From Lampris incognitus (lineage: Eukaryota), in NCBI RefSeq assembly GCF_029633865.1, contig NC_079220.1, forward strand, positions 16,786,216 through 16,850,215: a DNA stretch of 64,000 bases, in the 5' to 3' direction. Below the pieces are notes generated by a model, which worked only from the letters and a program-made list of their open reading frames with translations, did no database searches and was not told the DNA's origin. Every line of letters begins with the position of its first letter. Position 1 is the stretch's first letter. Made by a program: the position numbers and the translations under genes. This document shows, in pieces, positions 37,120 through 37,449 of the stretch.

Positions 37120-37331
37120 AACTCCAACCGTATCATCTGTTCAGCGGTGTTTGGTTTCGATGAGAAGCTGGCAGTGAGGCCCAAACTGTGTTTCAGCCAA
37201 AACAACCTGAATGTCAGCAGTGTGGACATCCAGTCTGTGGAACCGGTGGACCAGAGGACACGTGATGCCCTGCAGAAGAGCGTCCAACTGGCCATCGAGA
37301 TCACCACCAACTCCCAGGAAGCCGCTGCACG
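37120..37331 (+). CDS. mvp: major vault protein, coding exon 12
   Basis: tctgaccag|[76 protein letters not shown](R). Donor CACG|gtttgc, followed by (CA)n. Confidence 0.88.
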
Positions 37332-37333
37332 GT

Positions 37334-37436
37334 TTGCTTCACACACACACACACACACACACACACACACACACACACACACACACACACACACACACAC
37401 ACACACACACACACACACACACACACACACACACAC
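37334..37436. repeat. (CA)n microsatellite of about 48 units, starting 9 nt after the exon-12 splice donor
   Basis: CACG|gtttgcttc(ac)n... Confidence 0.95.
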
Positions 37437-37449
37437 ATCCCTGCTTTTG

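Follow-up and report, generated by a model that had tools for sequence, protein, structure and literature searches.

In the opah, Lampris incognitus, a perfect (CA)49 repeat lies just inside intron 12 of mvp, against a poor 5′ splice site, and AC-rich sequence is kept at this same donor in most of the teleosts that we examined. We propose, at roughly even odds (a probability of about 0.5), that an old AC-rich tract at the weak exon-12 donor, now expanded to (CA)49, would serve as a single-stranded platform for CA-binding proteins that influence the use of the donor by U1. AC repeats beside fish splice donors are already known genome-wide; what is moderately unusual here is that three splice-site repeats, namely this tract and the GT tracts beside the exon-14 and exon-15 acceptors, have held their places in most of the teleosts examined. 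The window, meaning the whole stretch of DNA analysed, is 64,000 nucleotides long, and all positions are counted from its first letter (Table 1).

mvp lies on the plus strand of the window, and its 16 coding exons (17106–47711) were located by tblastn with an approximate human MVP query; the final model rests on identity to P0001. With exon boundaries read from the sequence, all mvp introns are canonical GT–AG introns and the spliced open reading frame is clean over 863 codons. Its product of 863 residues is 100% identical to P0001 (NCBI XP_056143418.1, MVP isoform X2 of Lampris incognitus), and XP_056143418.1 departs from this reading frame solely by 16 extra residues, its ATG lying further upstream but within the same exon; the gene model thus agrees with an independent annotation. 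Exon 12, the 12th of the 16 coding exons, encodes ...TTNSQEAAA(R) and has ...GCTGCACG as its last letters; at 212 nt, it would shift the reading frame if skipped. Exon 13 is 117 nt long in all ten species compared below. A NAGNAG acceptor (ccagcag, 29004–29009) at coding exon 8 accounts for the Lampris MVP isoforms X1 and X2, which differ by one Gln. The two NCBI isoforms differ only at this acceptor, and they show no annotated splicing variation at exons 12–14. Rfam and tRNA scans of positions 36000–48000 returned no matches. Elsewhere in the window we noted two adjacent tandem-repeat arrays with a unit of about 180 bp upstream of mvp (7246–8329), and a (TTTC) array of about 60 units in intron 8 (31518–31765).

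Table 1 Features of the mvp exon 12–15 region, in window coordinates (a slash marks an exon–intron boundary).
Feature	Position	Strand	Description
mvp coding exon 12	37120..37331	+	212 nt, ends in codon phase 2; tblastn; boundaries gaccag/AAC and ACG/gt
Weak 5′ splice site of intron 12	37329..37337	+	ACG/GTTTGC; 4/9 consensus matches; U1 duplex −3.6 kcal/mol
Intron 12	37332..42453	+	5122 nt; first letters gtttgctt; ordinary pyrimidine-rich 3′ tract
(CA)49 perfect dinucleotide repeat	37340..37437	+ (mvp sense)	TRF and sequence; intron 12 positions +9 to +106
Degenerate antisense non-LTR retrotransposon (LINE)	~37441..41631 (ends approximate)	−	APE endonuclease and reverse transcriptase; ORF fragments
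Imperfect (CA)10	41632..41652	+	At LINE 5′ end; TRF and sequence
mvp coding exon 13	42454..42570	+	117 nt, in frame; between AC tract and first GT tract
(GT)13	44195..44220	+	Ends 6 nt before exon-14 acceptor ccatag/T; replaces polypyrimidine tract
Imperfect GT repeat	47193..47228	+	Ends 12 nt before exon-15 acceptor; replaces polypyrimidine tract

An initial annotation of this DNA had placed a (CA)48 microsatellite directly after the mvp exon-12 donor. Both elements were found where it put them, the donor as ACG/GTTTGC at the end of the 12th coding exon and the microsatellite as a pure array from intron position +9, and only the unit count needed correction: TRF returns 49.0 copies of a period-2 unit with 100% matches and a score of 196 over 98 nt. 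Matches to a 30-nt CA pattern occur at five loci in the window and in none of 100 dinucleotide-preserving shuffles, so the array is not a chance feature. Long CA/GT arrays are common in the window, with five of at least 15 units in 64 kb, or about one per 13 kb. For Lampris alone, there is a probability of about 0.07 that one of the seven intronic AC runs starts no more than 20 nt from one or other of the 15 donors, so the donor-side position gains significance only through comparison across species. Given its purity, its 49 units and the mutation rates from Lin et al. 2016 (Genome Res 26:12, PMC4691745), the Lampris array is likely to be length-polymorphic. A literature search on an MVP microsatellite or MVP exon skipping gave nothing relevant. 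Were intron 12 retained, the frame would read through the repeat as a His–Thr run, RFAS(HT)n..., to a stop at 37471–37473, and the outcome would be a truncated product or a target of nonsense-mediated decay.

For the comparison we mapped all 16 mvp exons in each of nine other teleost loci (Polymixia, Myripristis, Diretmus, Thunnus, Osmerus, Clarias, Genypterus, Salvelinus and Oreochromis), which with Lampris makes ten species. An AC run of at least 8 nt starting within +30 of the intron-12 donor is present in 7/10 species, against 4/140 of the other mvp introns (binomial 1.7e-9, a value that overstates independence because the ten species share ancestry). The contrast of intron 12 with the other 14 introns is clear despite the kinship of the species. 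AC hexamers within 40 nt of the intron-12 donor were found in eight of the ten, Lampris included. Other long tracts are those of Genypterus, (AC)31 from +6, and Polymixia, approximately (CA)22; Myripristis, Diretmus, Thunnus, Oreochromis and Salvelinus have a short or degenerate tract, and Osmerus and Clarias have none. The positional span of the AC tract runs from salmonids to spiny-rayed fishes, and that of the GT tract in intron 13 also takes in a catfish. Cross-species blastn of intron 12 with AC runs masked gave no meaningful match; since the remainder of the intron is unalignable, the AC tract has outlasted its surroundings. That it is kept at the same donor in most teleosts examined argues for a role connected with splicing. 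The mvp locus of Genypterus blacodes has a very compact layout (introns 12, 13 and 14 of 164, 222 and 273 nt), in which GT repeats longer than 95 nt take up a large part of introns 13 and 14, up to the acceptors.

The donor that adjoins the tract is consistently poor. In Lampris it is the second weakest of 15, with a U1 duplex energy of −3.6 kcal/mol where the median for the gene is −6.6, and in 8/10 species it ranks last or next to last in strength among the 15 donors. Clarias, which has no AC tract, has a much better exon-12 donor, TAG/GTCAGT. Osmerus combines a weak exon-12 donor (−4.1) with no AC tract; at least one lineage can therefore do without it. (CA)49 is well placed to affect a weak donor, and to that extent the interpretation given in the initial annotation is partly supported. 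The exon-11 donor of the opah (36750–36758) has the unusual intronic hexamer GTTTGC in common with that of exon 12. As a separate observation, the poorest U1 complementarity in the gene belongs to the exon-14 donor GCT/GTACGT (44351–44359, −0.9 kcal/mol), which opens an intron whose 3′ end carries a GT repeat; its GTACGT is kept in eight of the ten species, with GTATGT in Myripristis and GTCCGT in Osmerus.

Further downstream, introns 13 and 14, unlike intron 12, lack a polypyrimidine tract, and GT repeats stand in its place. GT hexamers lie within 40 nt of the exon-14 acceptor in 9/10 species, and the same count holds for the exon-15 acceptor; GT runs of at least 8 nt are found at the two acceptors in 7/10 and 8/10 species, respectively, against 2/130 of the other introns. 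At their own 5′ ends introns 13 and 14 have no conserved AC partner, and in no species does an AC run of at least 12 nt lie at an intron 3′ end. The conserved layout is one upstream AC tract, then GT tracts in the next two introns.

The AC tract might instead be a neutral microsatellite that came to lie near the donor by chance, a short AC seed beside a conserved exon re-expanding by slippage with no effect on splicing. We regard this account as possible but rather unlikely. It draws on the frequency of long CA/GT arrays in the window, on the single-species probability of about 0.07, on the two species that do without the tract, and on the very high mutation rate of AC repeats, individual instances of which are poorly conserved (PMC4691745). 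Moreover, tract length follows locus-wide AC/GT repeat density (rho 0.92, with the density count including the tracts themselves), which points to mutational propensity and not to selection on length; the extreme length in Lampris is probably a neutral expansion and not a tuned value. Against a neutral origin stands the placement of the tract: an AC run recurs at the same donor in 7/10 species but in only 4/140 other introns, the remainder of the intron is unalignable, the donor is consistently weak, and the polarity is that expected for function, with AC at the 5′ splice site, two conserved GT tracts at 3′ splice sites and, at 3′ ends, no AC run as long as 12 nt.

An improbable alternative, though one with several points in its favour, is long-range pairing of the AC tract with the GU repeats at the exon-14 and/or exon-15 acceptors, a cross-exon version of the AC–GT bridge described by Lin et al. 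Such pairing could determine which introns are removed first, help the U2AF-poor acceptors, or permit exon 13, which is 117 nt long and in frame, to be skipped in a regulated way. Across the entire pre-mRNA, nothing pairs better with the CA tract than the GT repeats that precede exon 14 (−57.1 kcal/mol) and exon 15 (−54.4). Most species share the arrangement of AC at the 5′ end of intron 12 with GT at the 3′ ends of introns 13 and 14, whereas few have AC and GT together in one intron (2/10 for intron 12, 1/10 for intron 13 and 0/10 for intron 14). In addition, accurate use of GT-repeat acceptors is reported to need an upstream AC partner (PMC4691745). Minimum-free-energy folds place the AC tract in a duplex with the GT tract of intron 14 in 7/7 orthologues, a result biased by a fold window picked to end at the GT tracts and obtained with a kind of fold that is unreliable for kilobase RNAs. 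Several observations weigh against pairing. In Lampris, 6.8 and 9.8 kb separate the AC tract from its downstream partners; in Clarias, the GT tract of intron 13 occurs with no AC tract; and Lin et al. (PMC4691745), who mention the architecture of one AC and successive GT repeats, saw no mutual exclusion of the Dscam kind at such loci and report that arrangements across exons are avoided. Exon 13 itself is present in both Lampris isoforms and in 121/121 teleost MVP proteins examined, among which we found no isoform lacking it. Co-variation of AC and GT length across species was dropped as evidence for pairing, since AC length correlates better with locus repeat density (rho 0.92).

That the AC tract and the exon-14 and exon-15 GT tracts together make up one conserved exon-spanning pairing system, ordering the removal of introns 12–14 or allowing exon 13 to be skipped, seems to us quite doubtful. 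If it were true, skipping of exon 13 would remove 39 residues from MVP, which we take to belong to the cap-helix region, the part that assembles the vault. A SINE-like repeat in intron 13 (43380–43750) carries a (TG)11 (43617–43639) that ranks as the fourth best potential partner of the CA tract. SINE-like repeats were also noted at about 17466–17525 and 42026–42085, as near-identical segments in introns 1 and 12 (…ggccatgtctgtg.gtggga…gtgggtatgtgtcct…).

Intron 12 of the opah also holds a degenerate antisense LINE, which has Pfam Exo_endo_phos and RVT_1 domains and a C-terminal CCHH zinc-finger motif, is frameshifted, and shows similarity to related LINE proteins over 37449–41456. On the minus strand, its ORF and a 3′ UTR of about 45 nt reach to a few bases from the CA repeat. 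Two contigs from two ENA metagenome assemblies contain related copies (L010 and L011), and the last ~110 nt of the opah element (ORF end and 3′ UTR) match both almost base for base up to ...GATGGACAAC, after which they diverge. All this is most simply explained if a LINE of about 4.2 kb, its exact 5′ end being approximate, inserted into a pre-existing CA tract and split it. The imperfect (CA)10 may be the other half of that tract, the LINE protein similarity ending (at 41456) about 175 nt short of it. Such an insertion would explain why intron 12 measures 5122 nt in Lampris against 79–946 nt in its orthologues. The 5′ part of the element contains a perfect 45-bp tandem duplication (2.1 copies, 40894–40986), and no other LINE copies were found beside the remaining CA/GT arrays of the window. 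Elements of this broad type frequently have a short tandem repeat at the end, and the minus-strand ORF and 3′ UTR run straight into (GT)49, but that the array, (TG)49 on that strand, arrived with the insertion as the element's own 3′ tail is very improbable, and we rejected it: both related copies continue after ...GATGGACAAC into unrelated sequence with no GT repeat, which makes (CA)49 target DNA and not tail; LINE-less orthologous introns, some of just 79–164 nt, carry an AC tract at the same position; and a second CA tract stands at the LINE 5′ end, as expected from insertion into an existing repeat.

The reading that we prefer, in which proteins bound to the AC tract act on the exon-12 donor, would unfold as follows. 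An old AC-rich tract downstream of the weak donor, kept in most teleosts, would have been expanded by slippage to its present state, the (CA)49 microsatellite. The antisense LINE of about 4.2 kb would have inserted at or into this tract, stretching the intron, once a few hundred bases long, to 5.1 kb and leaving AC sequence against the donor. Since the tract has no good partner within intron 12, it is most likely single-stranded in the pre-mRNA. Local folds of 400–1600 nt, a thermodynamic prediction only, give it a probability of being unpaired of 0.57–0.73, compared with 0.34–0.40 for the surrounding RNA, and a mostly unpaired tract would be compatible with single-strand CA binding of the hnRNP L type. 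It could then be a platform for CA-repeat binders of that type, and the bound proteins may influence, by help or by hindrance, how well U1 uses the poor donor ACG/GUUUGC.

As in known hnRNP L elements, the CA repeat lies in an intron near a splice site, and the preference of hnRNP L for CA repeats is well documented (PMC5959245, PMC3384337). The initial annotation named such repeats near 5′ splice sites as hnRNP L sites; in mammals, however, hnRNP L bound in the intron immediately beside the 5′ splice site is reported to repress, presumably by blocking U1 (PMC5959245). It follows that the eNOS enhancer precedent does not fix the direction of any effect, and that a simple enhancer role for the mvp tract is not secure. 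The persistence of the tract beside the donor argues against a purely harmful effect. The proposed position as a splicing modifier holds to the extent that the repeat adjoins a real and weak donor, at which an AC tract is kept in most teleosts examined. The initial annotation also passed over a closer precedent, the teleost system in which AC repeats accompany 5′ splice sites and GT repeats accompany 3′ splice sites (PMC4691745), and it overlooked both the GT repeats that precede exons 14 and 15 and the LINE against the CA repeat.

mvp is a housekeeping-type gene, and its exons 12–15 offer a convenient natural test bed for whether proteins (hnRNP L, TDP-43), RNA pairing or neither act through such repeats; they could also show whether repeat length matters. 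Genypterus, with its compact layout, looks a good experimental species. For the opah the consequence is modest: a likely polymorphic marker within mvp and a possible modifier of mvp mRNA yield.

Among known systems, the CA repeat in intron 13 of human NOS3 (eNOS) is described as a variable-length splicing enhancer that depends on hnRNP L (Hui et al. 2003, as summarized in PMC5959245). It resembles the mvp repeat in being a pure intronic CA repeat past a 5′ splice site, with hnRNP L a plausible binder. The eNOS repeat lies tens of bases further into its intron, the mvp repeat being much nearer its donor at +9. Organism and gene also differ, and while hnRNP L dependence and variable length have been described for NOS3, the mvp repeat is known here from its sequence. 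Closer in geometry are CA-rich elements beside 5′ splice sites through which hnRNP L represses (Hui 2005, Hung 2008, Heiner 2010 and McClory 2018, as presented in PMC5959245): in these, as in mvp, a CA tract lies immediately intron-proximal to a weak 5′ splice site, an arrangement reported to block U1 sterically. Those cases concern alternative or cryptic exons, whereas mvp exon 12 is constitutive and would shift the frame if skipped. Yeo et al. 2004, as represented in a 2016 paper that cites it, also counts among the literature bearing on the preferred reading. For the GT tracts at the exon-14 and exon-15 acceptors, the comparable case is the (TG)m(T)n polymorphism of CFTR intron 8, bound by TDP-43 (as given in the Discussion of Lin et al. 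2016, PMC4691745). There a length-variable dinucleotide repeat abutting a splice site changes exon inclusion, although it is a UG repeat at a 3′ splice site and not a CA repeat at a 5′ splice site. Docking and selector pairing of the Dscam1 type likewise has one upstream element complementary to elements in successive downstream introns. The mvp exons, however, are not mutually exclusive, no alternative use of them was found in the isoforms or the 121 proteins, and similar zebrafish loci show no such behaviour (PMC4691745).

As a precedent, the AC/GT repeat system of teleosts is nearer than mammalian eNOS. In zebrafish, and in other fishes as well, AC repeats peak just past 5′ splice sites and GT repeats just before 3′ splice sites; the two occur together at opposite ends of introns and form a hairpin that bridges them, and introns bridged in this way are spliced without U2AF2, with a weak or absent polypyrimidine tract at the acceptor in 61% of class members (PMC4691745). 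Lampris intron 12 has the AC hexamer of this class within 40 nt of its 5′ splice site, as part of (CA)49. Its last 200 nt contain no GT hexamer (a GT hexamer within 40 nt of the intron-12 3′ splice site occurs in 2/10 species), and its end, ...cattcagtcttgtctttccatttgtgcag, is pyrimidine-rich. With no 3′ GT repeat and a normal pyrimidine tract, intron 12 falls outside the class as Lin et al. define it. A same-intron AC–GT bridge was accordingly rejected for Lampris intron 12, in which the best internal partner of the CA tract reaches −21.8 kcal/mol.

What mvp shares with the teleost (AC)m–(GT)n introns is a teleost host, a long AC repeat within 40 nt of a 5′ splice site, a weak splice site accompanied by that repeat, and GT repeats in place of the polypyrimidine tract at nearby acceptors of the same gene. 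It departs from them in that the GT tracts complementary to the AC repeat of intron 12 sit in the next two introns, and in that the mvp tracts hold their position in most of ten species where the instances of Lin et al. are poorly conserved. We read (CA)49 as one case of a habit specific to teleosts, in which introns carry AC repeats close behind their 5′ ends.
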